32,000 nucleotides of DNA from Sedimentisphaera cyanobacteriorum (GTDB lineage: Bacteria > Planctomycetota > Phycisphaerae > Sedimentisphaerales > Sedimentisphaeraceae), in the NCBI RefSeq assembly GCF_001997385.1, contig NZ_CP019633.1, positions 1,230,001 through 1,262,000 on the forward strand. The letters run 5' to 3'. The position numbers and the translations under genes are program-made. A model generated the notes under the pieces. It worked only from the letters and a program-made list of their open reading frames with translations. It had not been told where the DNA came from and did not search any database. Below are positions 1,992 to 24,563 of this stretch, piece after piece. Numbering within the stretch: position 1 is the first letter of the stretch; every line of letters starts with the position of its first letter.

Positions 1992-2595
1992 AACTACGCC
2001 CAAAATAATAAACATAGCGATTCATCTTACGCCCCTCGGGAGTTTCAAACCTTTTATCAAGCAGCCAACCATTTTTCAGATAAAAGCGGTTGACCGATTC
2101 ATTTCCTTCCCTATCAGTAGTTAAGTAACATCCTTCACTTCCTCTTTGTTCAGCATCCTGCAAAAAACGATTCAAAAGCCCAGCTCCAACTCCTTTTCCT
2201 TGAGTATCAGGGGAAACTGCAATAGAACTTAATAGGGAAAGTGTATTATTATTTTCAGGTGCATCACCACGATAAAAGACTGCTCTAACCAATCTAAAAA
2301 TAATTTTCGGATTTTTTAGAACTGCCGTAAAGCTTGATAATGCAAAAATATACCACCTTCTTACCAGCAGTCTTTTAAAATAACCGTCTGGCACTAAAGG
2401 ACCAACAATTACCCCTGAAACAGAGCCATTCTCTATTGCTACAAATCCAATGCCTTCCTCATCTTCGATGAAGGACTGATAAAAACATTTCAAAAAACGC
2501 CTTCCTAAAAATGTAAGAAAAAAATTAGGGAAAGAACGCATGTGCACTTCCACTACCTCATCAATATATCGACTGCTAAGCTTTACGATATTCAC
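1984..2595 (-). CDS. GNAT-family N-acetyltransferase
   Basis: 203 aa with a GTG start. Acetyl-CoA binding motif A is present: IAVSPDTQGKGVGAGLLNRFLQDAEQRG, followed by NESVNRFYLKNGW. Translationally coupled to the aminotransferase downstream. Confidence 0.8.
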   Translation of the reverse strand: MNIVKLSSRYIDEVVEVHMRSFPNFFLTFLGRRFLKCFYQSFIEDEEGIGFVAIENGSVSGVIVGPLVPDGYFKRLLVRRWYIFALSSFTAVLKNPKIIFRLVRAVFYRGDAPENNNTLSLLSSIAVSPDTQGKGVGAGLLNRFLQDAEQRGSEGCYLTTDREGNESVNRFYLKNGWLLDKRFETPEGRKMNRYVYYFGRSYE

Positions 2596-3823
2596 CGTTT
2601 TTTCCTTGAACTGAGAAAAACATTTCTTCTAAATTGTCCACAGCAGTACTAAGAGACATCTTGTCATCATAATACTTTTTCCCTTTTTTACCAATTGTAC
2701 AAAGTTGTTTTGGTGAGGCTTTCGATAATTTTATTACTTCCTTAGCAATTTCTTCAGGATTTTCAGGCTCACAGCAAAATCCAGCACCAGCATCTTTAAC
2801 AATATCAGCACAATTGCCTTCCACACACATTAGAATTGGCCTTCCTAAAGATAAGTAAGCCTGAGTTTTGGAAGGTATTGTTATCTCAAAAAGAGGGTCT
2901 TTACGTAAATGAACAAGAAGAACATCCGCCAACTTCAAAATACCACCGATCTCTTCTACAGGTTTTCGGCCATGAAATATTACGTTTTTTAGACGTGATT
3001 CTTTAACTTGTTTTTTCAGCGGTTCAAATTCTACACCTGAACCTATCATTACAAATTGAACATCAGGGGCATTCCTCTGAACTATTTCCGCAGCTTTAAT
3101 AACAGAGCTTAAAGCCTGGGCTCCGCCCATATTACCTGCAAAAACAACGTTAAACTTGCCTGTAAAACCAAGTTTATCCGCAACGTTTCGATTTGCAACC
3201 TTTGATTCAGAAATAATTGCATCGCACCAGTTATAAATAATTTCAATTTTATTGCGCGGAACACCTCTATCCAATAAAAGACTCTTCATGCCTTGAGAAA
3301 TTACAACATTTTTTGATGCATTTCGATAATTGAATTTGCACCAAGAATGTAACATCTTGTACGCAAAACCATTTTTGAACATCCCTGTCGAAAGAAGACT
3401 ATCCGGCCAGACATCTTGAATATTGTAAACAAATGGGATATTTCTAAACCACTTGAGAATTACAGCAGGCAAACCTAATGTAGCCGGACCTTGAATAACA
3501 TAAGCTATATCAGCTTTTTTTATTATAAAAGGGGCAAACAATGACATTGAAGTAGACAATGATAAATAACATAAAATCCTTTTAACTGCTGACTGATCAT
3601 GACTGGGGTACAAAGGAAAACGCAAGACTTCCACACCTTCCATATTTTCACGCATAAACAGCTTTCCCTTATATCCATCATAAATTCTACCGCCAGGATA
3701 ATTTGGGAACCCTGTAATGACCTGAACTTCATGACCGCGTTTGACAAATTCTCTCGCTAATGGCAAACCGAAAAAAAAATTGGGTTCCGGCTGGAAATAA
3801 TGCGTTATAAAGAGAATTTTCAT
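2576..3823 (-). CDS. wbuB: GT4 glycosyltransferase, WbuB-like (putative L-FucNAc transferase)
   Basis: 415 aa. The N-terminus MKILFITHYFQPEPNFFFGLPLAREFVKRGHEVQVITGFPNYPGGRIY is the characteristic start of WbuB-type enzymes. A GT-B C-terminal half is present. The gene sits directly after fnlA-fnlB-fnlC, as in known L-FucNAc loci. Confidence 0.75.
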   Translation of the reverse strand: MKILFITHYFQPEPNFFFGLPLAREFVKRGHEVQVITGFPNYPGGRIYDGYKGKLFMRENMEGVEVLRFPLYPSHDQSAVKRILCYLSLSTSMSLFAPFIIKKADIAYVIQGPATLGLPAVILKWFRNIPFVYNIQDVWPDSLLSTGMFKNGFAYKMLHSWCKFNYRNASKNVVISQGMKSLLLDRGVPRNKIEIIYNWCDAIISESKVANRNVADKLGFTGKFNVVFAGNMGGAQALSSVIKAAEIVQRNAPDVQFVMIGSGVEFEPLKKQVKESRLKNVIFHGRKPVEEIGGILKLADVLLVHLRKDPLFEITIPSKTQAYLSLGRPILMCVEGNCADIVKDAGAGFCCEPENPEEIAKEVIKLSKASPKQLCTIGKKGKKYYDDKMSLSTAVDNLEEMFFSVQGKNGEYRKA

Positions 3824-3824
3824 A

Positions 3825-4958
3825 TCAGCTCAGGTCGTTTTTCTTAAGGTTTTCCCAGATGCAGTTAAGCTTGGCCTTGCCGGCTATAAGTTTCAGCACT
3901 CTCTCTGATGTATTCAGAATCTGGTAGTCTCTGGGCAATTCAACGCTGTTACTCGAAATATCATCAGAGGTTTGAATACGTATTGCTTCCACAATCGTAT
4001 CAGCCTCTAGACCGGTTACAACAACAGAGCCGGTGTCAACAGCTTCAGGTCGTTCTATGGCATTTCGGGGCGTTATTGCGGGGAAATTTAAGATTGAAGC
4101 TTCCTCGCAAATAGTACCGCTGTCCGATATAACGCACCTCGCCTTCATCTGCAGATTCACATAATCTATAAAACCAAAAGGCTTCATAAAACGGATTCTC
4201 TGATCCAAACCGTTTCTTTCAAGGCTTTCAAGCCTTTTTTTGGTTCTCGGATGAGTGCTCACAATTACCGGCACATCGAATTCATCAATCAGTCTCTCGA
4301 ATGCATCGAGTATCTGCCCTAAAGATTTTCTTCGATCCACATTTTCCTCTCTGTGGATGCTGGCCAAAAAGTATTTCCCTTTTTCAAGCCCCAATTCCTG
4401 AACGGCATTAGAGCCCTTGATTTTTTCAATATTGTCCATAAGGACTTCCCGCATAGGCGAGCCGGTAACATATATTCGCCTGTGAGGAAGCCCTTCTGAG
4501 ATAAGATGCCTTCTGGCGTGCTCTGTATAGCACAGATTAAAATCCGCTGTATGGTCAATAATTCGGCGGTTTGTCTCTTCTGGAACGTTTTGGTCGAAAC
4601 TTCTATTTCCCGCCTCCATATGGAAAATCGGGATATGCAGCCGTTTTGCAATGATGCCAGCTATAGAGCTGTTAGTATCGCCAAGTATAAGAACGGCGTC
4701 GGGATTTTCTGCTTTGAGTATCTCTTCGGCTTTGATTAGTATATTGCCGTAAACCTTCCCGAGGCTTGAGGTGTCCACATTCATAAAATGGTCGGGCTTT
4801 CTAACGCCAAGGTCATCAAAAAAAACCTCGTTTAGCTCATAATCATAATTCTGGCCTGTATGAACTATAATATGATCCAAATGCTTATCTAAGCGTTTGA
4901 GAACTGCCGAGAGCCTTATTATTTCCGGCCGAGTACCGAGGATGGTTACTACCTTCAT
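3825..4958 (-). CDS. fnlC: UDP-N-acetylglucosamine 2-epimerase (non-hydrolysing), FnlC/WbjD/Cap5G type
   Basis: 377 aa. Motifs MKVVTILGTRPEIIRLS, HTGQNYDYELN, LGDTNS and HMEAGNRSFD give the WecB-fold epimerase signature. Position after fnlB supports the FnlC call. Confidence 0.88.
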   Translation of the reverse strand: MKVVTILGTRPEIIRLSAVLKRLDKHLDHIIVHTGQNYDYELNEVFFDDLGVRKPDHFMNVDTSSLGKVYGNILIKAEEILKAENPDAVLILGDTNSSIAGIIAKRLHIPIFHMEAGNRSFDQNVPEETNRRIIDHTADFNLCYTEHARRHLISEGLPHRRIYVTGSPMREVLMDNIEKIKGSNAVQELGLEKGKYFLASIHREENVDRRKSLGQILDAFERLIDEFDVPVIVSTHPRTKKRLESLERNGLDQRIRFMKPFGFIDYVNLQMKARCVISDSGTICEEASILNFPAITPRNAIERPEAVDTGSVVVTGLEADTIVEAIRIQTSDDISSNSVELPRDYQILNTSERVLKLIAGKAKLNCIWENLKKNDLS

Positions 4959-4964
4959 AAAATG

Positions 4965-6074
4965 CTATACCTCTTCGTAGAATGTGTCTGGGTCTTTCGG
5001 ATCAAACGGCTCGCTAATCCAAAAAATTGTAACAAGCTGTGAGTTCCCTGTATTAGTGATATTATGCGTGTAATTAACGGGCATTTCAACCCAGCTCGGC
5101 TCATCGCCGCTTACTTTATACTCGATAACCTCTTGCGTTCCAATCCGGCGCAATTTAATGCTCGCCTGCCCCGAAACAACGCAAAATTTTTCGCTTTTTC
5201 TGGTATGATAATGATTGCCTCTTGTAATGCCGGGCTTTGTTGTAGAGAACGATACCTGCCCCGCCTCTTCAAACTTATAAACCTCTACAAAACTGCCTCT
5301 GTCATCTCTGCTTGATTTGAGATTTTTCTGCCAATCGTTTGAATCCATATAAGTAACGAAAGTATTGTACAGATCTCGCTCAAAATCACTGGAAAATGAG
5401 GGCACGAAACCGTCTGAATAGCATTTCTGGAAGCTATAAAGCAGATCCAATATTTTTGACACCCTAACGCCCTCGACTCTTGGCTTTATATGCTCCACCC
5501 TGCAGCCTGAAGTATTTTCCCTGATAAGCCCGCAAATATCCTCAACCAGATAGTTGATGTGAATCATACTAAGCTGGCCATCAACTTTTATCTCCGGCTG
5601 CTCTCCATACGCCACCTGATGGCAAAACGTTGCAACAACAGAATTGTAAAACGGCTTCCCTCCATCACCGAATACGTTGGGAACAACCATAGAAACTCCT
5701 GCAGCATCGCGATCACCGCACCATTTCTCCAGAATCTGCATAGCCGCCAGCTTACCTTTGCCGTATGGGTTATCCTTTTCAATCTGAGTGGTTGAAGAGA
5801 ATAGGATTTTGGGTTTGCTGCCCGAGCTGTCTGCCGCATCAAGGAGCTTTTGCATAAGCTCGATATTCTTATTGAATATTACGTCCGGCTCATCCCTGTT
5901 CACGCCGGCAAGATGAACAATAACATCTGCCTTTTGTGCAAAGTCTATAAGCTTGGATTCATCATCGTAGTAAGAATCCTCGAAAGGCAGGACATTGATA
6001 TCCTCTTCACGTGCGAGACGATTCTCTAAATGACCGCCGACAAACCCGCTTTTACCTGTAATGCCAACATTCAT
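4965..6074 (-). CDS. fnlB: UDP-2-acetamido-2,6-dideoxy-L-hexose 4-reductase/3-epimerase, FnlB/WbjC/CapF type
   Basis: 369 aa. An N-terminal SDR Rossmann motif (ITGKSGFVGGHL) is joined to a C-terminal cupin-like segment (GITRGNHYHTRKSEKFCVVSGQASIKL). This is the two-domain CapF layout, and the gene lies between fnlA and fnlC. Confidence 0.82.
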   Translation of the reverse strand: MNVGITGKSGFVGGHLENRLAREEDINVLPFEDSYYDDESKLIDFAQKADVIVHLAGVNRDEPDVIFNKNIELMQKLLDAADSSGSKPKILFSSTTQIEKDNPYGKGKLAAMQILEKWCGDRDAAGVSMVVPNVFGDGGKPFYNSVVATFCHQVAYGEQPEIKVDGQLSMIHINYLVEDICGLIRENTSGCRVEHIKPRVEGVRVSKILDLLYSFQKCYSDGFVPSFSSDFERDLYNTFVTYMDSNDWQKNLKSSRDDRGSFVEVYKFEEAGQVSFSTTKPGITRGNHYHTRKSEKFCVVSGQASIKLRRIGTQEVIEYKVSGDEPSWVEMPVNYTHNITNTGNSQLVTIFWISEPFDPKDPDTFYEEV

Positions 6075-6077
6075 AAA

Positions 6078-7109
6078 CTATTGCCTCTGCTCCCAGACTT
6101 CAAGCTCTTTCTGTACGTATGGAAGGCTGAGAAGGAGTTTTTCAACCTCAGGGATTCCCATCTGCCTTGTATTATGTGAGTTATAGTCCTGATTTACCAC
6201 TTCCTTCTCTTTGCCTTCAGAGAAGTACATTGTGTAGTTGAGGTCTCTATCGTCCACACCAACCCTGTAATAATCTACCATATCCTCTGCCTTCTGAAGC
6301 TCTTCTACCGTGAGAAGGGATTCATATATCTTTTCGCCGTGCCTTATCCCGATCACTTTAATTTCATTATCTGCATTCATTATGTTTCTAACTGCTTTGG
6401 CAAGATCCATCATTGTGCAGGCCGGTGCCTTGCGTACGAAAAGATCGCCCGGGCAGCCGTTTTCGAAAGCGAACAGAACAAGGCTGACTGCATCACGCAG
6501 AGGCAGCATAAAACGTGTCATATCGGGGACAGTTAGCGTTAGGGGCTGGCCCTGTTTGATCTGATTCATAAAAAGCGGAATAACCGAGCCGCGTGAACAC
6601 ATCACATTCCCGTACCGAACGCGACAGACAGTTGTATCGCCGGAATTATCGAGCCTTGAAGCCGCCGCCGAAACCTTTTCCATCAAAGCTTTCGTCATAC
6701 CCATTGAATTGATGGGATAAACCGCCTTGTCGGTGCTGAGGCATACAACTTTGTCAACGCCGTGCTTTATTGCAGACTGAATAACATTGTTGCTCCCGGA
6801 GATATTCGTCATCACAGCCTGCATCGGGAAGAATTCGCAGGACGGTACCTGCTTGAGGGCTGCGGCATGGAAAACAAGATCAACACCGTTCATCGCCTCA
6901 TCTACGGACTCCCTGTCTCGCACATCTCCGATGTAGAAGCGCAGCTTGGAGCTGGCCTTCTCTATTCGCATAAGCTCCTGCTTTAATTCATCACGGCTGA
7001 ATATGCGAATTTCCTTGCAGCCGGTTTCGAGTAGGGTATTTGTTACGGTTTTGCCGAACGAACCAGTTCCACCGGTAATTAGTACAGTTTTTCCTTCAAG
7101 TCTTTTCAT
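6078..7109 (-). CDS. fnlA: UDP-GlcNAc 4,6-dehydratase/5-epimerase, FnlA/WbjB/CapE type
   Basis: 343 aa. Motifs KTVLITGGTGSFGKT, FHAAALKQVPSCEF, LSTDKAVYPINSMGMTKALMEK and YGNVMCSRGSVIPLF match the extended-SDR CapE/FnlA/PseB family pattern. Confidence 0.9.
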   Translation of the reverse strand: MKRLEGKTVLITGGTGSFGKTVTNTLLETGCKEIRIFSRDELKQELMRIEKASSKLRFYIGDVRDRESVDEAMNGVDLVFHAAALKQVPSCEFFPMQAVMTNISGSNNVIQSAIKHGVDKVVCLSTDKAVYPINSMGMTKALMEKVSAAASRLDNSGDTTVCRVRYGNVMCSRGSVIPLFMNQIKQGQPLTLTVPDMTRFMLPLRDAVSLVLFAFENGCPGDLFVRKAPACTMMDLAKAVRNIMNADNEIKVIGIRHGEKIYESLLTVEELQKAEDMVDYYRVGVDDRDLNYTMYFSEGKEKEVVNQDYNSHNTRQMGIPEVEKLLLSLPYVQKELEVWEQRQ

Positions 7110-7178: not shown

Positions 7179-9503
7179 CTAATCTTTGCCGGAATCTTTT
7201 TTGTCTGCCCTTTTTCTAAGATTCATTAGATATTCTGATGTTATCTCTTCTGGGGGCTTTGCCATAAACTCATCCAGCAGATCCTGATGCCCTTTAAGTG
7301 CAACTGCATCTTCAAGACCTTCCCGCCAAAGCTGCCACCTCTTAGAAGGAACTATCGGCTCATATATTGCATCTTCAGGGAAATCAGGATTACTTCCTGC
7401 ATAAATCACACCATATATATATATAGAACTTTCATTAAAATGATTTTCATTAAAGTAACCTTCTCTGTCAGCATAAGTCCAAAATCCGGCACCCGCCAAA
7501 CCTAATGCCCTAGCCTGAATAGATAAAATTCTAAAACAATTTTTGTATTTAGTGTGTTTTTCAATGTTGTATGGATATCCTCGCCGAGGCATAGTTCCGT
7601 AACACCAAACTTTGCTGCAATTTTCTTTAATCAGCTTAATGTCTTTCCTGCGATTAACAAAGCTGTTTTGACCAACACACCAAATATCAACGTATGGAAT
7701 TGCTCTTTTTATCTCTTCGGTACTATCACCCATAGAATTTGCGTATATATTTATCATTGGGTTAGTACTCCTTATTATTTTTGCAGCTCTAATAAAATCA
7801 TCATGCAGTTCCTCATCATAAAGGTAGATTGCATAATTATCATAGCTGTAACCAAGATCACCCATGTATTTAACAAGGCGTCTAATATAAGAAGCAAATT
7901 TCCGGCCCCACTCTTCAGAATACATGTCTTGCCCAAAATATTTTTCTCTGCCAGAGCCGAACCCTAGCAAAAGCAGCACAAAATCTGCATGCTTTCTGAG
8001 CTGAAGTTCTTTTTTGAGCCTTGGATTTATTAGCACTATGTCAGAATCTCTCTTCTTCGAAGATATCTTGCTTACAAAAAGTGAAGGATGTATAACCGTA
8101 ACATTCAGATAATGCCGGCTTAGATCGTCAACAGCAAGATGAGGAAATTCATTAGTAAAAGTATTACTTCCGGTTATATAATCCCAGTTGCAGGTTTTGA
8201 AGTCTGGCTTTTCAGGGAATTTCCTGCGTGCTATTTCTATATCAGCTTTGATAACCTGTTTAGGCTTCTCTTCACTGTTCTCACATCGTACAAGAACCGC
8301 GGAAGAATAATTTCCCGGTCTCAAAGACTTTGAATTGAATTCAGCAAATAACTGCACGGTTTCTCCCGGTTCGATTTCAAAGCTTTTTCCTCCCTGCAAG
8401 ACGAGGGGGTCAGCCAAAAAACCTATATTCTTCGAATACACATAAACAGCCCGCCTCGGGATCATAAACGCCTGAGAAGGCAAATAGTCCCCCCCCCGCT
8501 TCAAAGGTGAAATATTTAAGCTGAACTGCAAACTTTTATCTGAGCAGTTTACAATATTAAAAGCGTTCAGGTCGTGTTCATTCTGCCAAGCATAGTACTC
8601 AAGCTCAGAGATGCTGTTAGGGCCCGCCGGCAGGTCTTCATATTTGAGAACCTTAAGCGGGGCCGCTGAAGTGCAGTACCAAGGGACATTATGTTTTGCA
8701 TTTAAGTATTCCGCCCTGATTTTATCAAAGAGCCTCTCAAGAGATTCTAACTCTTTGAAAATGCCCAGCTCCCTTTCAAAATCTTTGAGTTTGTCTTTGT
8801 AGGCTTTAATTTTAGAATCAAATTGTTTAATCTTAATGCCGGAACTTTTGAAAGAAGTTTGCAGCGATTGAATATTACGTTCAAGCTGACGCAGCCTTTC
8901 TGCAAACTCGATTGCTTCGCTGTTTACAACTGCAGGCCCATCCAGCTCGGGACAATCCTGTTCAGCAGCGAAAATCTTAATTTCATCACAAAAGAATGAA
9001 CTCATAGGCATAACTAATAATTTTACAAATCTTGCCTTGGTATTAAAATTTAACTTAAACCCTTTCCTTTTTGTTAAGGTTGTATCGTAAAATATACAAA
9101 CTTTTGAGCTCTTATAAGAAACAGCTCTGTAACATTCAGCATCTACAGAGGCTAAACCAATAATATAGTCGGGGTACTGGACTCCGCCTTTTCCCCCTCC
9201 GGTAGTATGTATAACTACCTCTGATATGTTTTTCATTTCCTCCAAATCAATTGTTATAGAAATAAAAGTATGATTGTTCCAACCAACAGTTTCACTTTTA
9301 TTCGAACTGTACCATATAGCACCGTCAGAAGCTGGAGAAGCCCTCTTTCCATCTGTCAGCTGTCTGTAATCTCCTGCATCTTTCGTTAAATGGTAATTCG
9401 GCTCAGGGACAAGCGTATAGTCTTTATTCAATGCCAAATTCTCGGCGGCCGGCAGATTGGCAGTTACAAAAAACACAAATAATATCAGTATGAATTTCTT
9501 CAT
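7179..9503 (-). CDS. Secreted multidomain protein: signal peptide, discoidin/F5-8-type-C-like beta-sandwich, coiled coil, DUF4091/GH123-like putative glycoside hydrolase region
   Basis: 774 aa. The N-terminus MKKFILILFVFFVTANLPAAE looks like a Sec signal. Residues ~20-185 (NLALNKDYTL...RQLTDG...ISITIDLEEMKNISEVVIHT...CDEIKIF) resemble carbohydrate-binding discoidin modules. Residues ~195-265 are heptad-like (ERLRQLERNIQSLQ...KDKLKDFERELGIFKELESLERLF). The C-terminal ~500 aa, ending in WQLWREGLEDAVALK, recalls DUF4091/GH123 proteins. It is certainly a CDS; the functional call is motif-based only. Confidence 0.55.
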   Translation of the reverse strand: MKKFILILFVFFVTANLPAAENLALNKDYTLVPEPNYHLTKDAGDYRQLTDGKRASPASDGAIWYSSNKSETVGWNNHTFISITIDLEEMKNISEVVIHTTGGGKGGVQYPDYIIGLASVDAECYRAVSYKSSKVCIFYDTTLTKRKGFKLNFNTKARFVKLLVMPMSSFFCDEIKIFAAEQDCPELDGPAVVNSEAIEFAERLRQLERNIQSLQTSFKSSGIKIKQFDSKIKAYKDKLKDFERELGIFKELESLERLFDKIRAEYLNAKHNVPWYCTSAAPLKVLKYEDLPAGPNSISELEYYAWQNEHDLNAFNIVNCSDKSLQFSLNISPLKRGGDYLPSQAFMIPRRAVYVYSKNIGFLADPLVLQGGKSFEIEPGETVQLFAEFNSKSLRPGNYSSAVLVRCENSEEKPKQVIKADIEIARRKFPEKPDFKTCNWDYITGSNTFTNEFPHLAVDDLSRHYLNVTVIHPSLFVSKISSKKRDSDIVLINPRLKKELQLRKHADFVLLLLGFGSGREKYFGQDMYSEEWGRKFASYIRRLVKYMGDLGYSYDNYAIYLYDEELHDDFIRAAKIIRSTNPMINIYANSMGDSTEEIKRAIPYVDIWCVGQNSFVNRRKDIKLIKENCSKVWCYGTMPRRGYPYNIEKHTKYKNCFRILSIQARALGLAGAGFWTYADREGYFNENHFNESSIYIYGVIYAGSNPDFPEDAIYEPIVPSKRWQLWREGLEDAVALKGHQDLLDEFMAKPPEEITSEYLMNLRKRADKKDSGKD
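8489..8497. repeat. Homopolymeric C9 tract (G9 on the coding strand) inside the 774-aa gene
   Basis: The plus strand reads agtCCCCCCCCCgct. On the minus strand the tract encodes K-R-G-G-D (aag cgg ggg ggg gac) around codon 336. It is the longest G/C run I found in the window; the next longest are 6 nt. Confidence 0.9.
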
Positions 9504-10239: not shown

Positions 10240-11361
10240 TTAGCCTAAAACCTTCTTTATTGTTAGAATTTGGGTGTGCGGATTATACTTTTCCTCTATT
10301 ACTTTGTAACACTTAGTTCTAATATCTTCTCTATCTCTTTCAGAAAGACCAAGCCAAGACCATAATTTAATTGACAAATCGGCTGTTGAACCTTGATCGA
10401 AGAAACTGCCCGTAACACCTTCCTCAATCGCCTCAAACTCGGGACCATGTTTTGTGAAATCATTATGTGTAACAACAGGAGTGCCATAAACAAAGCTGTG
10501 AATTACAGTTAAACCAATATTCCCCGGCGTAACACAGACATCAGCATTATATATTAATTCACCAAGTACTTCCTCTTCATAGCAAGGGCCGTAAAACCAT
10601 ACATAATCAGCCAGTCCATAATCGGAGACAAGCTTTTCAAGGCCGGTATTCTCATTATCTTTTCCTATTACTACCAAATTAAATGACTTGCCCTCATTGT
10701 TCAAAAGATTTAACGCTTCAACTGCCAAATCAAGCCTTTTTATTTTTTGAATCCTGCCGATATAAACAGCCACAGGATTATCATTGCCAAAATGCTTTTT
10801 ATATACATCGCTTTGGGTGAGCTTCTCTCGAATTTTGAGCTGCTTATCATAGTCAAGCGAATTATAAATGCATACAAGCTTATCAGGCTTAAACCCTTCT
10901 TTTATCATCAAATTGCGGGCGTAATCCCCGTAAAGCAAAACCTTAGTACATAACGAAAAGAAAACCTTCTTTATTATCGTTTTTATTATTCCTTCGCGTC
11001 CATACCAGCCGTGTGTCCAGAGATATGTTTTCTTGCCCAAAATCTTGGCAAATAAAAGCACAAACCAAGTGGAAATGCAGTAAGGCTCCCCTGTTAGTAT
11101 AAACTTTTGGTAATGCCTTTTAAAAACAAGGCTTGCAGCACCTCTTTGATACGAAAATTTATTTACGAATAAAGCTTTTAACTCTTTCCTAAATCCTTCA
11201 AGCTCTGAATAGTCAAATTTCTTCACATCTGAAAGAGACCGGTCTGCAAAATAGAAATCACAGCAAAGCTCAGAATCCATAAGCTTGTAGATAGGCTTAC
11301 GGTAATGATGAGCTAAATTGAATAAGCAGCAGTTAGTAGGTTTTTTACTCATTTTCAACAT
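10240..11361 (-). CDS. GT-B glycosyltransferase (GT4-like)
   Basis: Track ORF 10240-11373 begins with TTG; ATG alternatives lie at 11361 and 11352. The C-terminal half (VVIGKDNENTGLEKLV...ADVCVTPGNIGLTVIHSFVYGTPVVTHNDFTKHGPEFEAIEEGVTGSFF) shows the GT-B donor-site E-x7-E pattern. Confidence 0.78.
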   Translation of the reverse strand: MLKMSKKPTNCCLFNLAHHYRKPIYKLMDSELCCDFYFADRSLSDVKKFDYSELEGFRKELKALFVNKFSYQRGAASLVFKRHYQKFILTGEPYCISTWFVLLFAKILGKKTYLWTHGWYGREGIIKTIIKKVFFSLCTKVLLYGDYARNLMIKEGFKPDKLVCIYNSLDYDKQLKIREKLTQSDVYKKHFGNDNPVAVYIGRIQKIKRLDLAVEALNLLNNEGKSFNLVVIGKDNENTGLEKLVSDYGLADYVWFYGPCYEEEVLGELIYNADVCVTPGNIGLTVIHSFVYGTPVVTHNDFTKHGPEFEAIEEGVTGSFFDQGSTADLSIKLWSWLGLSERDREDIRTKCYKVIEEKYNPHTQILTIKKVLG

Positions 11362-12298
11362 ACTTATTCGCAATTAATTCAGATATTTTAAAGCTTTTCA
11401 TTTTAAGAAAACCTATCGAAACAAGAATTCGCCATAAAAACCTAATTGATAATGACAGTCTTTCAAAACCCTTTTCAAATCTCAAATAATTTTCAGCTCT
11501 TCTTATAGGATCTTTATGAATATTATTTTTAAGAACTTTATCTTTCATTATTATCAACTCAGCATCAGAAGAATTAGGCCTGCTGTGAAAATTTCTATGA
11601 AATTTAAAATTATTTAAAGCATCTTGCCCCCTAACAACTTCTTTTCTTCCGTTACTAGTATGGCCATAGTCATGAAATTGATGCAGAGCTAGGATTTTTA
11701 AGGTGCCATTAATTATAGGAATTTTGTTTCTCATACAATATAAAACCAAAGCCTCGTCATAACCTGCTCTACCTATTACTAGAGCCGGGAGATCATTCCA
11801 CATCCCTCGTCTAAAAATGAAATAATCCATACCGGTTGGAGAGTGCAATTGCAATTTGCAAGTTTCAAACAATTGTTTTAATTGTCCTAACCAATGTTGA
11901 TTTAACTCAAAATCTACATCTTTCATGAGGTCAATCCGCTGCCCAGTTACCAAAAATTCATTTAACTTGGCTTTTGTAATAATTTTAACAGCGTCTGCAA
12001 TGGTTTCATTTAGCAAAATATCACAATTTAGATAACACTGTATATCATGCTTAGCATTTTTTTTTGCATGATTTACTATACTGTTAAATAAAGGAATCCC
12101 AGACAGACTACACTCAATATCTGGAACGTTAATCGTACCAAGATCTTTGCATGCTTCTGCAACTCCTTCACCTTCACCATAAACTAAAACTTCGACATCG
12201 GCAGCAACCCTTAACCAACTTTGAATAGCCTTCTTCTGTATCCGGCCAGTGTGGCCATAAAATGGCTTGGGACTCGTTAAAAACGTTATCATAGCCAA
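11345..12298 (-). CDS. Uncharacterised protein, possibly a GT-A-like glycosyltransferase
   Basis: 317 aa. The N-terminus ITFLTSPKPFYGHTGRIQKKAIQSWL is followed by a possible DxD-like site (CYLNCDILL). I cannot assign a family from sequence alone. Confidence 0.35.
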   Translation of the reverse strand: MAMITFLTSPKPFYGHTGRIQKKAIQSWLRVAADVEVLVYGEGEGVAEACKDLGTINVPDIECSLSGIPLFNSIVNHAKKNAKHDIQCYLNCDILLNETIADAVKIITKAKLNEFLVTGQRIDLMKDVDFELNQHWLGQLKQLFETCKLQLHSPTGMDYFIFRRGMWNDLPALVIGRAGYDEALVLYCMRNKIPIINGTLKILALHQFHDYGHTSNGRKEVVRGQDALNNFKFHRNFHSRPNSSDAELIIMKDKVLKNNIHKDPIRRAENYLRFEKGFERLSLSIRFLWRILVSIGFLKMKSFKISELIANKYVENE

Positions 12299-12979: not shown

Positions 12980-13951
12980 TTATTTTGCGATTAAAAAATC
13001 TTCATAAGCCAGTTTTATTCCATCTTTAAGGCTTATGCTCGGTTTCCAGCCAAGAGAGAATAATCTGCTTACATCAAGCAGTTTTCTAGGGGTGCCGTCC
13101 GGCTTTGAAGTATCCCATTTTATCTCTCCATCAAATCCGACCACCTCTTTCACTATTTCAGCCAGCTCTTTGATGGTCTGGTCTTCGCCGCAGCCAATAT
13201 TAATCAGCGGGGCAATATCTTCATGACCTACAAACTTAGAATACATATCATCTTCCAAATCAAGCAAGTGCACGCAAGCTCTGGCAAGATCATCGCTGTA
13301 CAAAAATTCTCTGTAAGGGCTTCCGGTACCCCATAGCTCTACCGAATCTCTGTTCTCACTCTTGGCCAAATGCATTTTGTGAATCAAACCAGGGATAACA
13401 TGCGAATTCTGCAAATCATAATTATCACCAGGGCCGTAAAGATTTGTGGGCATAACTGCTAAATATCTTGTCCCATACTGCCGGTTGTAAGACCAGCACA
13501 TCTCGATACCGCCAATCTTAGCAAGAGCGTAAGGACGGTTTGTCGGCTCGAGCTCTCCTGTAAGCAGGTGTTCCTCTTTCATTGGCTGAGGACAGTGCTT
13601 GGGGTAAATACATGAAGAACCGAGGAAAAGAAGTCTTTTAACACCCGCCAAATATGCGTTGTGAATTATATTTGTTTGTATGCGCATATTCTCATAGAAA
13701 AACTGTCCGGGATAGGTGTTGTTAGCTATAATACCGCCAACCTTTGCCGCACACTGAATAATAAAGTCCGGTTTTTCCCGCTGCATAAAATCTGCAACAA
13801 CCTTGCTGTCAAGCAGGTCAAGCTCATCGATAGACTTTAGCAGAAGGTTATCAAACCCTCTTCGCTGCAGCTCCCTGATAATTGCTGAACCTACTAAGCC
13901 AGTATGCCCGGGAACATAAATTTTCGAATTCTTATCAATAAATCCGCTCAT
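12980..13951 (-). CDS. fcl: GDP-L-fucose synthase (GDP-4-keto-6-deoxy-D-mannose 3,5-epimerase/4-reductase)
   Basis: 323 aa. Motifs KIYVPGHTGLVGSAIIREL, ELDLLDSKVVADFMQREKPDFIIQCAAKVGGIIANNTYPGQFFYENMRIQTNIIHNAY, LGSSCIYPK and PTNLYGPGDNY. Lies directly downstream of gmd. Confidence 0.92.
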   Translation of the reverse strand: MSGFIDKNSKIYVPGHTGLVGSAIIRELQRRGFDNLLLKSIDELDLLDSKVVADFMQREKPDFIIQCAAKVGGIIANNTYPGQFFYENMRIQTNIIHNAYLAGVKRLLFLGSSCIYPKHCPQPMKEEHLLTGELEPTNRPYALAKIGGIEMCWSYNRQYGTRYLAVMPTNLYGPGDNYDLQNSHVIPGLIHKMHLAKSENRDSVELWGTGSPYREFLYSDDLARACVHLLDLEDDMYSKFVGHEDIAPLINIGCGEDQTIKELAEIVKEVVGFDGEIKWDTSKPDGTPRKLLDVSRLFSLGWKPSISLKDGIKLAYEDFLIAK

Positions 13952-13962
13952 TACTCACCTCT

Positions 13963-15072
13963 CTACTCATTATAATCCGGCGTACGGAATCCGTGTTTCC
14001 TTGAGACGACATCGTGTCTTGCAATTTCCATATCCGCCTCAACCATTTCCTTTACAAGCTCTTTAAAACTTGTGCGCGGATTCCATCCAAGCTGATTTTT
14101 CGACTTTGAAGGATCGCCCAAGAGAGTTTCAACTTCTGCCGGCCTGAAATACTTTGGATCTATCTTTACGACGATATTATCATCAGAATCTCTTTCTTCG
14201 CAAATATGATTTTTGGCAACGGCAATCTCATTTACGCCTTCGCCCTGCCATTCAATATCAATTCCAGCTTCCCTGAACGCAAGCTCTACAAATTCACGTA
14301 CCGAATGCTGCTCGCCAGCAGCAATAACGTAATCATCGGGCTTATCCTGCTGAAGAATCAGCCACATTGCCTCCACATAATCCCTCGCATGCCCCCAATC
14401 TCTTAGCGAATCAATATTGCCGAGATAAAGGCGGGGCTGAAGCCCCATTTTTATTCTAGCGGCGGCTCGGGTGATTTTTCGAGTAACAAAAGTTTCGCCT
14501 CTTAGCGGGGATTCGTGATTGAAGAGTATGCCGTTGCAGGCAAACATATTGTAAGATTCCCGGTAGTTCACGGTTATCCAGTATCCGTATATCTTAGCAG
14601 CAGCATAAGGGGAACGGGGATAGAAAGGCGTGCTTTCATTTTGGGGAATCTCCTGCACCTTCCCGTAAAGCTCTGATGTAGAGGCCTGATATATTCTGGC
14701 TTTATCTGCCAAACCTGCATTCCTCACTGCTTCAAGGATGCGAAGTGTTCCTAAAGCATCTACGTTGCCGGTATATTCCGGTGTTTCAAATGAGACCTTC
14801 ACATGGCTCTGGGCAGCAAGATTATATATCTCATCCGGCCGAACCCGCTCTATAATTTGAGCAACATTTGTTGAGTCTGTCATGTCTCCGTAATGAAGGG
14901 AAAATTTACAGTCCTTTTCATGAGGATCTTGATAGAGATGGTCTATGCGGTCAGTGTTAAACATAGAGCTGCGGCGTTTAATCCCGTGAACCTCATATCC
15001 CTTATTCAAAAGAAACTCAGCTAAATAAGCTCCGTCCTGACCTGTTATTCCTGTTAATAATGCTTTTTTCAT
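13963..15072 (-). CDS. gmd: GDP-mannose 4,6-dehydratase
   Basis: 369 aa. Motifs [79 protein letters not shown] and [21 protein letters not shown]. Confidence 0.95.
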
Positions 15073-16505: not shown

Positions 16506-17768
16506 CTATAATCCTGATAATTCAATGTATGTATTTAAAAGTTTATTTAAATTCGTTTCAGGGTCGTGCCTCTTTTCGGCTGTTTTAACTGAATTGGCTG
16601 AAAGGGTTTGTGCGAAGCTTCTATTTTCAAAAATTTTTCTAATATTTTCTGCAAGCATTTCCACCTCTTCGAACCGGTAAAGCAATCCATCAACCCCTTC
16701 TGAAATAGAATCTGGTACACCACCTACATAAGAAGCGATACAAGGTACTCCTAAAATCTGAGCTTCAGCAACAGAATTTGATTCATTTTCTATTGAAGAA
16801 GGAGAAATAAAAACATGTGCTCTTAGATATTCTGAGATCATATCCTTTTCTCCAAGCGGCCCGAGGAATTCTATATTTTTCTCTAATCCGAATCTTTTAA
16901 TCAGGCCGTTAATATACTTTCCGTACCCCGACAGCCGAATTTTATCTTTCAGGGTTACAGTCTTTGTTATATCAGCTCCCGCCACTCTGATAATCAAAGC
17001 GGGGTAATCATTTTTGAGCAATTTTACAGCTTTAAGAACCTGATGCAATCCTTTAACTGGATAACTTGCCTGGCTCAGGAAAATTGAATGCTTTGAACAC
17101 TTATTAAAATTCCATTTATTTGAATTATAAAATGATTGCCGAAGTATTCTTTTACTTATATCCACAGGAATTTGTTGGTTCCATGTTTTAAAATGACAAT
17201 AGTCCCAGAAAGTCGTACAAATAAAATAATTAACGTTAAAAGCATATTGTTTTTCAATTTCCCCGCGCTGCCGCATTTTTCTTTGCCCATGAAATATCGT
17301 ATCAAAGCGGACAAGATCGCGAAATGTGATATTGCGGATAATATCCCAGAAGCTCATCCCGGCCGTATAATATCTTGCAATCACATTAGTAATTCCCTGC
17401 ATAGAGACAATATACTTATATTCACTGCAGGCTTTTAAGCAGGCTAATCCATGCGCAAATTCTGTGCCGTGAATGTGAATCAGATCCGGCTTAAATTCTT
17501 TGCAAACCTCCTGCCACAGCGGCTCAAGCTCAGAATGATATTTAATATTGCTTCCTTTAATTGGAAGAAGGTAGTAGGTAATGCCGTCAATCGTTTCTTT
17601 TTGAAGCTCATCACCCTGATATACAGCGGCTGCTGCTAAATGAACGTTTTCACTTTTTGCAACAAGCTTGCTGAGATTGTGCATCCAGCCGCCGGTAACC
17701 GGCCTTGAGCCCCCCAACTTCTCCGCCATATCAGGCAGAATAATGTTTGTTATCCAGAGAATATTCAT
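16506..17768 (-). CDS. GT4 glycosyltransferase
   Basis: 420 aa. The N-terminus MNILWITNIILPDMAEKLGG...GGWMH is followed by the C-terminal motif FISPSSIENESNSVAEAQILGVPCIASYVGGVPDSISEGVDGLLY. Confidence 0.85.
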   Translation of the reverse strand: MNILWITNIILPDMAEKLGGSRPVTGGWMHNLSKLVAKSENVHLAAAAVYQGDELQKETIDGITYYLLPIKGSNIKYHSELEPLWQEVCKEFKPDLIHIHGTEFAHGLACLKACSEYKYIVSMQGITNVIARYYTAGMSFWDIIRNITFRDLVRFDTIFHGQRKMRQRGEIEKQYAFNVNYFICTTFWDYCHFKTWNQQIPVDISKRILRQSFYNSNKWNFNKCSKHSIFLSQASYPVKGLHQVLKAVKLLKNDYPALIIRVAGADITKTVTLKDKIRLSGYGKYINGLIKRFGLEKNIEFLGPLGEKDMISEYLRAHVFISPSSIENESNSVAEAQILGVPCIASYVGGVPDSISEGVDGLLYRFEEVEMLAENIRKIFENRSFAQTLSANSVKTAEKRHDPETNLNKLLNTYIELSGL

Positions 17769-17805: not shown

Positions 17806-19041
17806 CTAACTTAAAACGCCAAGTCTTTCAGGGTCAGCATATCTTTTTGCATTATGGAAATCAGCTATCACCCATCCCCAGAAAAGTGCATTAAGAATAA
17901 AACTATAAGGTATGGTAATAGACATCTCAGTATTACCAATCCAAAAATACATTGCTAAAGAAGCTGCGAAAGCCCCTGCGTGCCTGTAATTAAATCTCAT
18001 CATGTCAAGAAAAATCTTGCAAATTTCATAAATAAATAATAAGTAAAAGATAAGACCTATGACACCATAGGCAAATAGAATGTCAACAATATCGTTATGA
18101 GCACGGCCTATTCCAACTCTATTAGCTGCCCCATAACCATTACCAATTATCCACTCAAAAAAAGATTGAGATGAAAGATGATTGAATGTCGCAAGAAAGA
18201 TGCCTATCCTACCAGACCCCTGATCCTTTACTACATTTTCCATCCTCGTTCCAATAGCAAAACCCATCGCTGATAACTCTTTGTATAGAATTGCCAATAT
18301 TATAAACAAAAGGGCTAAGCCTAAAAACGCAAGAAGTTTTCGAGATATTCCAATACCTTTAAATTTAAGAGTGCAAAAATAAAAAGAAGCTACAGCAGTT
18401 AAATAACCAACTAACGGAGCTCGCTTAACTGAAACAATAATAGCCGCAAAAATTAAAACTAAATAAAAAGACTTGACTACCTTTGATTTTAACAACAAAA
18501 TGGGTGGCAAAAAATAGGATATATAAAATATCGCATTATAACCTCTGGTGCTTTCTACTGCAAACCCCTGTCTGATTCTAAAAAAGGTAACCAAATAAAA
18601 ACTAACGGCTACAACAGAAGCAAAAGTAAAATATTTTAAGGTATTAATTTTCAATGATCCAAAATAAGACAATACAATTATCCATAACCAATAACTTATA
18701 TCGATCATTATCATAGGCCATTCTATGGGAGTATAAGCTCTGGAAGCTAACAATGATAGAAACCCAGCAACTGAATACAAAAAACCGTAATATATAAACC
18801 TTCGTTCCTTAACCCAGGCAGTTGAATTTCCTATAAATATTAAAAATGCAATAAGGATAATGACAAGCATATACCATGCATAAGGGGATATGCTTGTACC
18901 TATCTTTTGCTCTAAATACATATTAGCCATATTGTGATGATAACGAAGAAAAGTACTTATCATCAAAATCAAGGCTAACAAAGATTCAATATATAAGATT
19001 GAACCATGTTCCGGATTATTTTTAGTTTTTATATAATTCAT
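17806..19041 (-). CDS. wzy: Polytopic membrane protein, O-antigen polymerase / O-antigen-ligase-like (Wzy family)
   Basis: 411 aa with about 10 or more hydrophobic segments by eye. A periplasmic-loop-like stretch (GNGYGAANRVGIGRAHNDIVDILFAYGVIGLIFYLLF) resembles the Wzy_C motif. ATGA overlap with the upstream GT2 gene. Confidence 0.72.
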   Translation of the reverse strand: MNYIKTKNNPEHGSILYIESLLALILMISTFLRYHHNMANMYLEQKIGTSISPYAWYMLVIILIAFLIFIGNSTAWVKERRFIYYGFLYSVAGFLSLLASRAYTPIEWPMIMIDISYWLWIIVLSYFGSLKINTLKYFTFASVVAVSFYLVTFFRIRQGFAVESTRGYNAIFYISYFLPPILLLKSKVVKSFYLVLIFAAIIVSVKRAPLVGYLTAVASFYFCTLKFKGIGISRKLLAFLGLALLFIILAILYKELSAMGFAIGTRMENVVKDQGSGRIGIFLATFNHLSSQSFFEWIIGNGYGAANRVGIGRAHNDIVDILFAYGVIGLIFYLLFIYEICKIFLDMMRFNYRHAGAFAASLAMYFWIGNTEMSITIPYSFILNALFWGWVIADFHNAKRYADPERLGVLS

Positions 19042-20053: not shown

Positions 20054-21211
20054 TTAAAACTGCCATTGTTTGAGCGGAAATGCCCTGCTGCAAGGACCGC
20101 TCTTAGAGCAGTTCAATTTGCCATGCAGCAAAGATTCAGATAAATCAATAAAACTTTCTGCGGCATTCTCTGGATTCCATTCTTGCTGTAAGGTTTTATA
20201 TGCATTTTTTCCCAACATTTTACGTAAACCTTCATCCAATAAAAGGCTTTCTGCCTTTTTGCAGAAATCATCTATATTCCCGTATTTATAAACAAGCCCA
20301 TTACGATTATTATTTATTAAAAACGGAACTGATCCGATTGCATGGCTTGCCAAAACCGCGCATCCGCTGTTCATTGATTCATTGAGCACTGCCCCCCAGC
20401 CTTCATTATAGTCGCTTGTAAAAAGGAATATGTCGCTGGCATACATATAATCCCTGACCCTTTTATGGGGCATCGCTCCCAGCATTGAGATTTTTTCATC
20501 TAACTGAGAAGACTGAATCATACTTCTTATTTTATTTTCATAATTCCCCGTTCCTATCATATTAATATGGAAATCATACCCCTTGCTCCTGAGATATTTG
20601 GCTAAATAAACAGCATATTCAGGGTGCTTCCAATCAAGGAAACGACCGCACCAAAGAATTTCTAGCCGCTCTTTGTCAGAATTGCGTCTTTCTTGCAAAT
20701 CTCGCTTGATAAACTCGGGAAAATAGCCCCATTTAAAACATTTTTGAGGGTAAGCTCCCACTAAAGCACAATCTCCTGCGGTATAAGCACTTGCGCAAAG
20801 CATATAAAGGTTGCTGCTGCGGTATTTAGTATGCCGTTTCAATAAGCTAATCAGAACCCTTGGGTCGAGAATTCTCCAAATCCCTCTCTTGAAGATTCTT
20901 TCAGAATATCTGAATGTGAGCTTGTTATGCTTCATTCTTTCCGTTACATATACTTCTGGTGCAGAACCATGTATAACCACATCACTTTCAAATGCAAGCT
21001 CCATGGCTTTAACTGCATTCTCTTTACTATCATAAACAGTCAAAATAAAAGGGTGCTGCTTGTTCATATCCGAGAATCCAAGTTTTAGTCTTTCTTTAGC
21101 AAGGGGTTTTGTTGCAACGAAAGTAAAACTACCTCCAAGTAATTTATACATTTCTCTGCAGAAACTGAACTGATGATGGTTCATAAAATTTGAATAAAAG
21201 GTAATTCGCAA
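20054..21211 (-). CDS. GT-B glycosyltransferase (GT1/GT4-like)
   Basis: 385 aa with a TTG start. The N-terminus MRITFYSNFMNHHQFSFCREMYKLLGGSFTFVATKPL is followed by the C-terminal motif FLFTSDYNEGWGAVLNESMNSGCAVLASHAIGSVPFLINNNRNGLVY. Confidence 0.75.
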   Translation of the reverse strand: MRITFYSNFMNHHQFSFCREMYKLLGGSFTFVATKPLAKERLKLGFSDMNKQHPFILTVYDSKENAVKAMELAFESDVVIHGSAPEVYVTERMKHNKLTFRYSERIFKRGIWRILDPRVLISLLKRHTKYRSSNLYMLCASAYTAGDCALVGAYPQKCFKWGYFPEFIKRDLQERRNSDKERLEILWCGRFLDWKHPEYAVYLAKYLRSKGYDFHINMIGTGNYENKIRSMIQSSQLDEKISMLGAMPHKRVRDYMYASDIFLFTSDYNEGWGAVLNESMNSGCAVLASHAIGSVPFLINNNRNGLVYKYGNIDDFCKKAESLLLDEGLRKMLGKNAYKTLQQEWNPENAAESFIDLSESLLHGKLNCSKSGPCSRAFPLKQWQF

Positions 21212-23006: not shown

Positions 23007-24563
23007 TCACAAACATAATCGTTTAATAGCATTTTTCCGCAAACTGAATAATTTGTAAAATATACTTTGTAATTTTTCTTGAAGGTAAATTCGTTCATAC
23101 CCATTCAAACCAATAAAGTATATCCCCAAAGAACACCAGACACAAGATATTAATGAAACAACTGCAAATTTCAAGAAACCGCTTTTGTCGACTAATGTTA
23201 TAAACGCAAGAGGCAGTGAGAACAATAGAACTCCAATTATTCTTAATTGCACTTTCTTTAAGTAATTCAGGATATCAAAACCAATTTTAAATTTTAAGAT
23301 TATCATCAAAGCAACCATAATTATTACTTCAGACAAAGCAAAGTTAATCAGACCCCAAACAGCTTGAAAACCAATATGAAACATAACACCAGAAACAACA
23401 AGGCATAAGAGACAGGAGAACACTTTGAATGTTTCGTATTCCTTAATTTTGCCGCTTGAATTCAGAAGAATCCCGGAAGTGCCCCTTAGAGTTTGCACTA
23501 AAACAGCTATAATCATCACTCTACAAAAAATCACTGTATTAGCCGGCACATCTCCCAACCAAAGCTTCAAGAGAAATTCTGTTTCGAGCAAAATGGGGAC
23601 TGAAGGCAAAAGCATTAAGAAGAAAGTATATTTAGACATTCCATAGACTATCTGCAAAACCCTTTGCCAGTCCCCACCGCCATGTCCTTTAAAAACTTGA
23701 GGAGCCGATACAGTATTAAGAGTTTGCGTAAAAGTAATCAATAAACCCGTTAATTGCTTTGCAATGCCAAAGGATGCGTTGACTACCGTACCGAAAAAGT
23801 AATTTAATACCATAGCAAGCCCTTGGCTATTGCCAACGGCAGCAGAAGAACCTAATAAAGACCAAGCAGAGAAGCTTAACATTTCCTTATATTTATGCCA
23901 CTTAAAAGAAATTTTCCACTTAACCAAATCTTTATATTTAATCCTGCAATAAATAAAGTAAAGGAATGAACAAGTTCCCCAAACCAATGCTGTTAAAACA
24001 GCATAAATTTTCAGTTTATTGCTAAGGAAAAAGATCAGAGAAAATGCTACTATGAATCTCATGAAAGAGGATAATGTTTCAATTAGAACCCTAATTAAAA
24101 AATTTTCCTTAGCTGAAATCAAACCTCGGTAAGGTATCACAGAAACATTTAGAATCGCTGCTAAAACTGAAAAGTGGTACACAAAAACAGCATCATCCAA
24201 TTTGCCTTCTTCTACATTAAGAAAATTGTATACATAATAAAGACCAATGGTTTCGGCTAAGAGAAATATTAAAAGAGCAAATGACAAATGAATTACAAGA
24301 CTAATATTAAATATACTATTTGAATCACCTTTAGCTCCCTTACCCAATTCGTTGGCAATAAAACGATGCGTAGAACCAGATATGGAGATATTCAGAATAT
24401 TAAGCAGCATAACAATTCCGCCAACTACATGATAAAGACCATAATCAGATGCGCCAAGATTTTGCAAGACAAGCCTTGCAGTAAACAGCCCTAACAAAGT
24501 ACTAATTATTAGTCTAATATAAAGCAATAAGCTATTTAATGCTATTCTTTTATTTCCGCTCAA
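23007..24563 (-). CDS. wzx: Oligosaccharide-unit flippase, MOP/PST superfamily (Wzx)
   Basis: 518 aa and hydrophobic throughout (about 12-14 helices by eye). The N-terminus NKRIALNSLLLYIRLIISTLLGLFTARLVLQNLGASDYGLY is typical of Wzx/PST flippases. TTG start with AGGA 6 nt upstream. Confidence 0.85.
   Translation of the reverse strand: MSGNKRIALNSLLLYIRLIISTLLGLFTARLVLQNLGASDYGLYHVVGGIVMLLNILNISISGSTHRFIANELGKGAKGDSNSIFNISLVIHLSFALLIFLLAETIGLYYVYNFLNVEEGKLDDAVFVYHFSVLAAILNVSVIPYRGLISAKENFLIRVLIETLSSFMRFIVAFSLIFFLSNKLKIYAVLTALVWGTCSFLYFIYCRIKYKDLVKWKISFKWHKYKEMLSFSAWSLLGSSAAVGNSQGLAMVLNYFFGTVVNASFGIAKQLTGLLITFTQTLNTVSAPQVFKGHGGGDWQRVLQIVYGMSKYTFFLMLLPSVPILLETEFLLKLWLGDVPANTVIFCRVMIIAVLVQTLRGTSGILLNSSGKIKEYETFKVFSCLLCLVVSGVMFHIGFQAVWGLINFALSEVIIMVALMIILKFKIGFDILNYLKKVQLRIIGVLLFSLPLAFITLVDKSGFLKFAVVSLISCVWCSLGIYFIGLNGYERIYLQEKLQSIFYKLFSLRKNAIKRLCL

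Follow-up and report, generated by a model that had tools for sequence, protein, structure and literature searches.

Poly-G tracts of at least 8 nt are established switches in the capsule and lipooligosaccharide (LOS) loci of other bacteria (PMC8437040, PMC5084427). Here we consider a tract of nine consecutive G (G9) in the gene P0001 of the planctomycete Sedimentisphaera cyanobacteriorum. The gene (7179-9503, minus strand) lies in a stretch of 32,000 nucleotides (contig NZ_CP019633.1, positions 1,230,001 to 1,262,000), which we refer to as the window and on which the coordinates of the locus are numbered; tracts elsewhere are given in genome positions. An initial annotation proposed that the tract is a phase-variation switch. 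We consider the chances evenly balanced that the G9 is a contingency locus, that is, a slippage-prone and reversible frameshift that would turn a secreted, glycoside hydrolase family 123 (GH123)-like enzyme ON and OFF.

In Campylobacter jejuni, the capsule and LOS poly-G genes have an uninterrupted G tract (about 8-11 nt) within an enzyme open reading frame (ORF) in a low-GC surface-polysaccharide locus. Slippage by one base in either direction (+1 or -1) leads to a premature stop and ON/OFF expression, and several such tracts occur per genome (PMC8437040). The S. cyanobacteriorum locus is alike in these respects. It is unlike C. jejuni in that variation was measured experimentally there, whereas we infer it here, and in that the C. 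jejuni targets are mostly transferases, whereas P0001 is predicted to be a secreted glycosidase of a free-living organism that is not host-adapted. The phasome of Neisseria meningitidis is similar in other ways, being found in a mismatch repair-proficient organism with homopolymer tracts in both ORFs and promoter spacers (PMC5084427). Its targets include surface-glycan genes and DNA methylases; in S. cyanobacteriorum a methylase gene is split at a C8 tract, and G tracts abut -10 boxes. The meningococcal system differs in that its candidate loci number more than 100 and deep sequencing has validated them, whereas 13 tracts of at least 8 nt are known here from the genome sequence.

The initial annotation was aware of no poly-G switch in the Planctomycetes-Verrucomicrobia-Chlamydiae (PVC) superphylum, but the pmpG genes of Chlamydia are a precedent. 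According to 10.1101/506121 (PMC6740158), which cites Pedersen 2001 and Wheelhouse 2012, these genes carry phase-variable poly-G tracts. They resemble the case described here in belonging to the PVC superphylum, in having poly-G of at least 8 nt within ORFs, in showing frameshifts at the tracts, and in independent gains in paralogues. They differ in that they encode autotransporter adhesins of an obligate intracellular pathogen, whereas P0001 is a glycan-locus enzyme of a free-living planctomycete. The kind of element is therefore already known. For Planctomycetota, we found no report of poly-G phase variation in the literature. To our knowledge, nearly all contingency loci described so far come from host-adapted pathogens.

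On the forward strand the tract appears as nine consecutive C at 8489-8497, which is G9 on the coding strand of P0001. It is made up of the two G of CGG (R336), the whole of the two GGG codons (G337 and G338) and the G of GAC (D339), so that the series AAG CGG GGG GGG GAC encodes K335-R336-G337-G338-D339 in an open frame. With G9 in frame, the clone that was sequenced is ON. The sequence and codons agree with the initial annotation, which had placed an in-frame tract at about codon 336 in a K-R-G-G-D motif. It had also described the tract as isolated, and this is exactly the case: apart from G9, the longest G/C runs in the window are 6 nt, at 17710-17715 and 20392-20397. The GC content of the P0001 gene is 39%, and that of the genome (one contig of 2,951,611 bp) is 46.2%. 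The EF-Ts encoded in the window shares 95% identity with that of Sedimentisphaera salicampi, which makes the organism a sister species of the latter (Phycisphaerae, Planctomycetota) and bears out the PVC assignment of the initial annotation.

A slip in either direction would truncate the protein ahead of the predicted catalytic region, as had been anticipated. In silico, loss of one G (G8) gives CGG GGG GGG ACT and then TGA, translated as RGG-TICLLRRL-stop; the stop, read from the sequence at 8462-8464 (minus strand), is 8 codons past the tract, and the product would be about 346 amino acids (aa) long. Gain of one G (G10) leads to a TGA stop 25 codons past the tract (8410-8412, minus strand, likewise read from the sequence) and a product of about 364 aa. 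Both products retain the signal peptide, lectin-like domain and coiled coil, and both are without half of the beta-sandwich and the entire barrel, including Asp563-Glu564. The tract itself is in a loop of the beta-sandwich, with the barrel that carries D563-E564 downstream, as expected if it lies 5' of the catalytic part.

The 774-aa product is secreted and modular, as the initial annotation had described it; its signal peptide and series of domains (all encoded on the minus strand) bear this out. A Sec-type signal peptide is read from the sequence at aa 1-20 (MKKFILILFVFFVTANLPAA, followed by E; 9444-9503), with a helix at 2-15 in the structural model. It is followed by a discoidin or F5_F8 type C (CBM32-like) beta-sandwich at about aa 25-180 (8964-9431), identified by family matches and by Foldseek matches to CBM32; F5_F8_type_C was matched in four of ten family members, and P0001 itself is a weak match only. 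Next come a coiled coil at aa 194-271 (8691-8924; model helices 194-221, 228-244 and 249-271) and a GH123-type N-terminal beta-sandwich at aa 275-428 (8220-8681), in which the tract loop is located between strands 334-336 and 339-341. This loop varies between homologues (KRGGDY, KRGDDY, AIGDKY and KNKEDY). The C-terminal part, at about aa 440-740 (7284-8186), is a GH123-like (beta/alpha)8 catalytic barrel region, recognized by a profile comparison with the PDB and by Foldseek, and it includes the predicted catalytic DE motif, D563-E564 in YLYDEEL (7812-7817).

The function of P0001 was assigned solely via the family profile against the PDB and the fold. A profile of ten family members matched NgaDssm (8k2j, E=1.2e-21) and NgaCa (8k2f, E=2.3e-14), and a Foldseek search with the AlphaFold model (mean predicted local distance difference test score 66.8, with low confidence at aa 636-737) returned GH123/Nga enzymes as all of its top 22 matches (E 3e-20 to 3e-14). 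D563-E564 is invariant in all ten family members and aligns with the "ADE" of NgaDssm. Throughout the enlarged GH123 family, this DE motif provides the catalytic pair in a substrate-assisted mechanism (PMC11087588). No significant Pfam or NCBIfam family was found for P0001 itself. Pfam GH123_cat (PF13320) matched three of the ten family members (best E 8.7e-6) and not P0001; given that P0001 falls below this threshold, we term it a GH123-like distant relative rather than a curated member. With this qualification, P0001 is predicted to be a beta-N-acetylhexosaminidase. As in the members of the enlarged family (NgaDssm, NgaCa and BvGH123, 5l7v; PMC11087588), a beta-sandwich precedes a (beta/alpha)8 barrel whose DE motif is at the aligned position, at Foldseek E values of 1e-20 to 1e-14. 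P0001 differs from them in that sequence identity is only 11-16%, in that a discoidin domain and a coiled coil are added at the N terminus, and in that its locus is biosynthetic rather than catabolic.

P0001 is situated inside a co-oriented polysaccharide locus (831-24563, minus strand) defined by domain matches. The locus includes a flippase-like gene with a Polysacc_synt_3 domain (23007-24563), a Wzy-like gene (17806-19041) whose Wzy_C-like match of 24.3 bits is under the 31.7-bit cut-off, gmd- and fcl-like genes (13963-15072 and 12980-13951), and fnlA-, fnlB- and fnlC-like genes (6078-7109, 4965-6074 and 3825-4958), as well as genes for GT4 and GT2 transferases, hexapeptide acyltransferases, and DegT and GNAT proteins. 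Flippase, polymerase, glycosyltransferase and nucleotide-sugar genes are found together and in one orientation, as in Wzx/Wzy-type polysaccharide loci, and the surface-polysaccharide setting of the gene has held up. Homologues of P0001 are present in 42 of the 301 Sedimentisphaerales genomes searched, and those inspected are in comparable loci. Glycoside hydrolases are encoded in other exopolysaccharide biosynthesis loci as well: PslG, PelA, BcsZ and WceF are secreted or periplasmic and are thought to act on the polymer of the cell itself. P0001 shares with these enzymes its co-encoding with synthesis genes, while the folds and families differ. We know of no homopolymer switch in PslG, PelA, BcsZ or WceF.

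Two A/T runs of 9 nt also occur in the polysaccharide locus. One, an A9 (T9 on the coding strand) at 3771-3779, is near the 5' end of a GT4 gene (2576-3823), and the other, a T9 (A9 on the coding strand) at 12057-12065, is in a gene for a 317-aa protein (11345-12298). A/T runs of at least 9 nt are common genome-wide (63). At the edge of the locus, between sugar-nucleotide genes, a HEPN-domain gene (26751-27200) overlaps a 112-aa ORF (27139-27477), and the two may form a toxin-antitoxin pair of the HEPN/MNT type.

Comparison with other genomes adds to the case for a switch. The orthologue in the sister species, an S. salicampi-like genome (G001), is 64% identical and reads AAA CGC GGC GAT GAT at the site, without a tract. 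Tracts have arisen independently in homologous and related genes of other genomes. In a third species of the same genus (genome G002), a homologue 40% identical to P0001 has its own in-frame G9 (TGG GGG GGG GCG) at about codon 76, straight after an invariant TVGW motif (68984-68992 of contig G002:C7; 8984-8992 of the extracted locus L010). The gene is within a locus with Wzy, GT2, pyruvyltransferase and PGA_cap genes. Both tracts encode Gly-Gly, and both are in variable loops. Among the 11 tracts of at least 9 nt in G002 whose context was examined, the one in the glycosidase homologue is the only one that is clearly intragenic. The chance of a tract falling in one of the two G002 family genes is about 0.002-0.01, or about 0.04 on a looser count that takes in all homologue loci. 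We regard this independent G9 as suggestive, not decisive, support for a switch. In a further genome (G126), a hexapeptide acetyltransferase gene two genes from the P0001 homologue, in the homologous locus, has a G9 near its 3' end (5036-5044 of locus L046, contig G126:C56). With G8 this gene would have the canonical IVGGVPAKV... C-terminus, whereas the G9 form stops short of it and overlaps the following gene at an ATGA.

The alternative that survives best, which we consider a serious possibility although short of an even chance, is that the G9 has no part in regulation and is just an incidental hot spot for mutation. In this scenario, a Gly-Gly loop drifted to CGG GGG GGG GAC, and the tract, which slips occasionally, is transient rather than maintained as a switch, its null mutants being lost or slightly deleterious. 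Genome-wide statistics bear on both sides of this question. G/C runs in the 2.95-Mb genome number 1675 (5 nt), 260 (6 nt), 13 (7 nt), 5 (8 nt), 4 (9 nt), 2 (10 nt), 1 (12 nt) and 1 (16 nt). We compared the coding runs with a shuffle in which synonymous codons were permuted within about 1,950 long ORFs, keeping each protein and the codon content of each gene. Expected and observed counts were 413 and 226 for 6 nt, 97 and 12 for 7 nt, 26 and 2 for 8 nt, 5.1 and 3 for 9 nt, and 1.5 and 1 for 10 nt, that is, observed/expected ratios of 0.12 (7 nt), 0.08 (8 nt), 0.59 (9 nt) and 0.66 (10 nt). The counts of long runs are not above the neutral shuffle, and amino acids and codon usage alone thus allow for the G9, in agreement with the hot-spot explanation. 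The share of GGG among Gly codons is 19%, and that of CGG among Arg codons is 9%.

The same shuffle also yields an argument against an incidental origin. Coding runs of 7-8 nt are depleted 8- to 13-fold, which is the pattern that selection against slippery sites would produce, and GGG-GGG dicodons are avoided (70 observed versus 182 expected). Runs of at least 9 nt are not depleted in this way (4 observed versus 7.2 expected); if the depletion to about 0.1 extended to them, about 0.7 coding runs would be expected, against the 4 seen. Given this purge of 7-8-nt runs, one would not expect a 9-mer to persist in a gene that is intact and conserved. Chance alone is not impossible as the source of the G9, which is part of a small surviving tail of longer runs. 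The G9 of the sister-species homologue, at the chances given above (0.002-0.04, depending on the background count), and the fact that the gene belongs to a functional class that is classic for such switches also speak against a mere hot spot.

Several observations weigh against a switch. By chance the shuffle permits about five coding 9-mers. Of the 33 family members examined, only P0001 and the G002 homologue have a run of more than 6 nt in the gene, so the tract is not a conserved feature of the family, and, as the hot-spot explanation would have it, it arose through substitutions alone in a variable loop. The 8-nt tracts of G002 are in ordinary, housekeeping genes (AcrB, an M16 peptidase, GH31 and an AddA-like helicase), and a long tract is therefore not always the sign of a surface or defence gene. 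A second strain with the P0001 gene was not found, as the protein cluster at 90% consists of the S. cyanobacteriorum genome alone. The exact tract-flank pattern gave no matches in metagenome contigs, the Logan contigs contained no copy of the gene, and a related-locus search of genome contigs gave a single weak discoidin-domain match, on a Bacteroides scaffold. Finally, the genes for mismatch repair are intact. C. jejuni is not known to have MutL/MutH-type repair, whereas the S. cyanobacteriorum genome has intact MutS and MutL genes, so slippage is probably slower than in Campylobacter, and from established knowledge its rates are likelier to be Neisseria-like than Campylobacter-like. Loss of mismatch repair as a cause of tract instability is ruled out by the presence of both genes.

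Seven of the 13 G/C tracts of at least 8 nt in the genome are coding and the remainder are intergenic. On the question of whether such runs are frequent and scattered at random, the genome favours the initial annotation, both in the small number of runs and in that four of the seven coding tracts coincide with a frameshift; an intact orthologue in the sister species confirms this for three of the four. A corA/zntB-like gene is broken at a C9 (1898076-1898084, coding strand) into ORFs of 215 aa and 120 aa, one matching Pfam CorA positions 2-171 and the other positions 179-291; the sister-species orthologue is intact (333 aa) and reads CTG AAC CCG CAA (NPQ) at the site. A gene for an N4/N6 DNA methylase with an SNase domain is out of frame at a C8 in its TSPPY motif (1819723-1819730), where C7 would restore the frame, and the sister-species orthologue (87% identical) is intact with ACA TCT CCC CCC TAC. 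This methylase could be phase-variable or a pseudogene. A G10 (1978340-1978349, coding strand) divides an ADP-ribosylglycohydrolase ORF from a dockerin-bearing ORF. The counterpart in the sister species is a single frame of 754 aa with GCC GGC GGA ATA at the site, from which it follows that the tract in S. cyanobacteriorum grew from the equivalent of 6 to 10. The fourth case is a secreted Gly-rich repeat protein (2191600-2194684), in which a G9 in repeat 1 is out of frame and a G8 in repeat 2 is in frame, and the two repeats do not differ at all over the 33 nt before and the 369 nt after the tract. This protein matched no Pfam family, and a pattern search for its tract in three genomes (G001, G002 and G005) found no orthologous copies.

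We read these four genes as slippage at G/C tracts in this lineage, in favour of a switch. They may be OFF states, plain pseudogenes or consensus errors specific to G/C runs, and in this ambiguity they also count against it; under each of the three, however, the tract length would be labile or hard to fix. As a set they resemble ordinary decay, in line with a hot spot, in that the corA-like gene needs +1 or -2 and the ADP-ribosylglycohydrolase tract has grown from 6 to 10. On balance, the proposal of a phase-variation switch is plausible and partly supported: the tract, its frame, the class of locus, the truncation, the rarity of such runs and the G9 of G002 favour it, and the considerations above leave it at the even chance that we gave at the outset.

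A very improbable alternative is an assembly or consensus artefact, in which the true tract is not 9 nt long or is interrupted and the other homopolymer frameshifts are consensus errors. Four genes are indeed broken exactly at long G/C runs, and some sequencing platforms miscall such runs. However, with G9 the P0001 frame stays open over 774 aa and is colinear with every homologue, so a length of 9, or one differing by 3, is right. In a crude split-ORF test, at most 8 of the 121 coding A/T runs of at least 8 nt were split, against 4 of the 7 coding G/C tracts; A/T runs are rarely split, and the frameshifts at G/C tracts are therefore not general homopolymer miscalling. For three of the four other cases one would have to assume an over-call, whereas an under-call is usual, and a length that is off by one would still leave long tracts in existence.

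Recoding at the level of expression, in which slippage of RNA polymerase or the ribosome on the G9 yields a fixed share of a truncated lectin/coiled-coil isoform from unchanged DNA, is the least credible alternative: homopolymers of about 9 nt can trigger transcriptional slippage in bacteria and the truncated product would keep a complete signal peptide, lectin-like domain and coiled coil, but the known cases use mainly A or T runs, slippage is poor on G:C hybrids, the shifted frames are just 8 and 25 codons long with no conserved sequence, and the tract is missing from 31 of the 33 homologues.

Some of the tracts elsewhere in the genome have other roles or contexts. A C9 at 1399389-1399397, between two LamG-domain genes, is one arm of a strong intrinsic terminator with a stem of 14 bp (-24.7 kcal/mol, z -3.4) and U6 after it, and hence not every long tract is a switch. 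A terminator-stem role was rejected for the G9 at 8489-8497 because this tract is in the middle of an ORF. Folding analysis gave no significant fold for a C10 at 2480552 or a G12 at 1794196. Several intergenic tracts abut -10-like boxes. For instance, TTGTAA-N17-TATAAT, with a G8 in the spacer (2051441-2051448), is upstream of an insertion sequence transposase gene. Elsewhere, the G10 at 1978340 is next to TATAAT, and in G002 TTGACA-ttac-G10-TACAAT (L043 3001-3010) is upstream of a gene for a PEP-CTERM protein. This recurrent layout of G tract and -10 box could tune promoter spacing. In a type II CRISPR-Cas locus, a C16 (170603-170618) is located 6 nt upstream of the start of cas1. In the same locus, cas9 (a 1111-aa ORF, 171927-175262) has an in-frame G8 near its 3' end and is followed by an overlapping ORF of 162 aa. 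A T7 at 171969 is close to where the two meet, so that cas9, too, is possibly split.

Taken together, these tracts lead us to suggest, tentatively and as less likely than not, that Sedimentisphaera has a homopolymer phasome of about 8-12 G/C tracts. Its members would be the glycosidase, the secreted repeat protein, the ADP-ribosylglycohydrolase-dockerin protein, the DNA methylase (a possible phasevarion), the promoter-spacer tracts and the tract at the cas1 start.

If the G9 of P0001 is a switch, slipped-strand mispairing at replication would interconvert G8, G9 and G10 much faster than point mutation does, and populations would be mixtures of enzyme-plus and enzyme-minus cells. We suspect that the enzyme trims or releases the polymer of its own cell, which would contain N-acetylhexosamine, such that switching would alter the length or shedding of the surface glycan. 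An altered surface glycan could in turn affect phage adsorption or attachment in the mat. No convincing terminator was found 3' of the P0001 gene, and the gap to fnlA is 69 nt, so polarity on the downstream genes is possible; premature termination may in this way reduce expression of fnlABC.

From the perspective of bacterial adaptation, should the tract prove stable, the finding would be an ordinary codon coincidence. A working poly-G switch would mean that this way of bet-hedging is also used by environmental bacteria, with phage defence or attachment in mats as its probable purpose, and the case would be stronger if the tracts in the methylase, in the secreted proteins and beside the CRISPR-Cas genes switch too. 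A phasome, if real, would have no precedent among Planctomycetota or among free-living anaerobes of hypersaline mats, and its likely driver would be phage pressure, not host immunity. A switch in P0001 would also offer a handle on the role of a widespread, uncharacterised GH123-like enzyme that accompanies Wzy-type loci across the Sedimentisphaerales.

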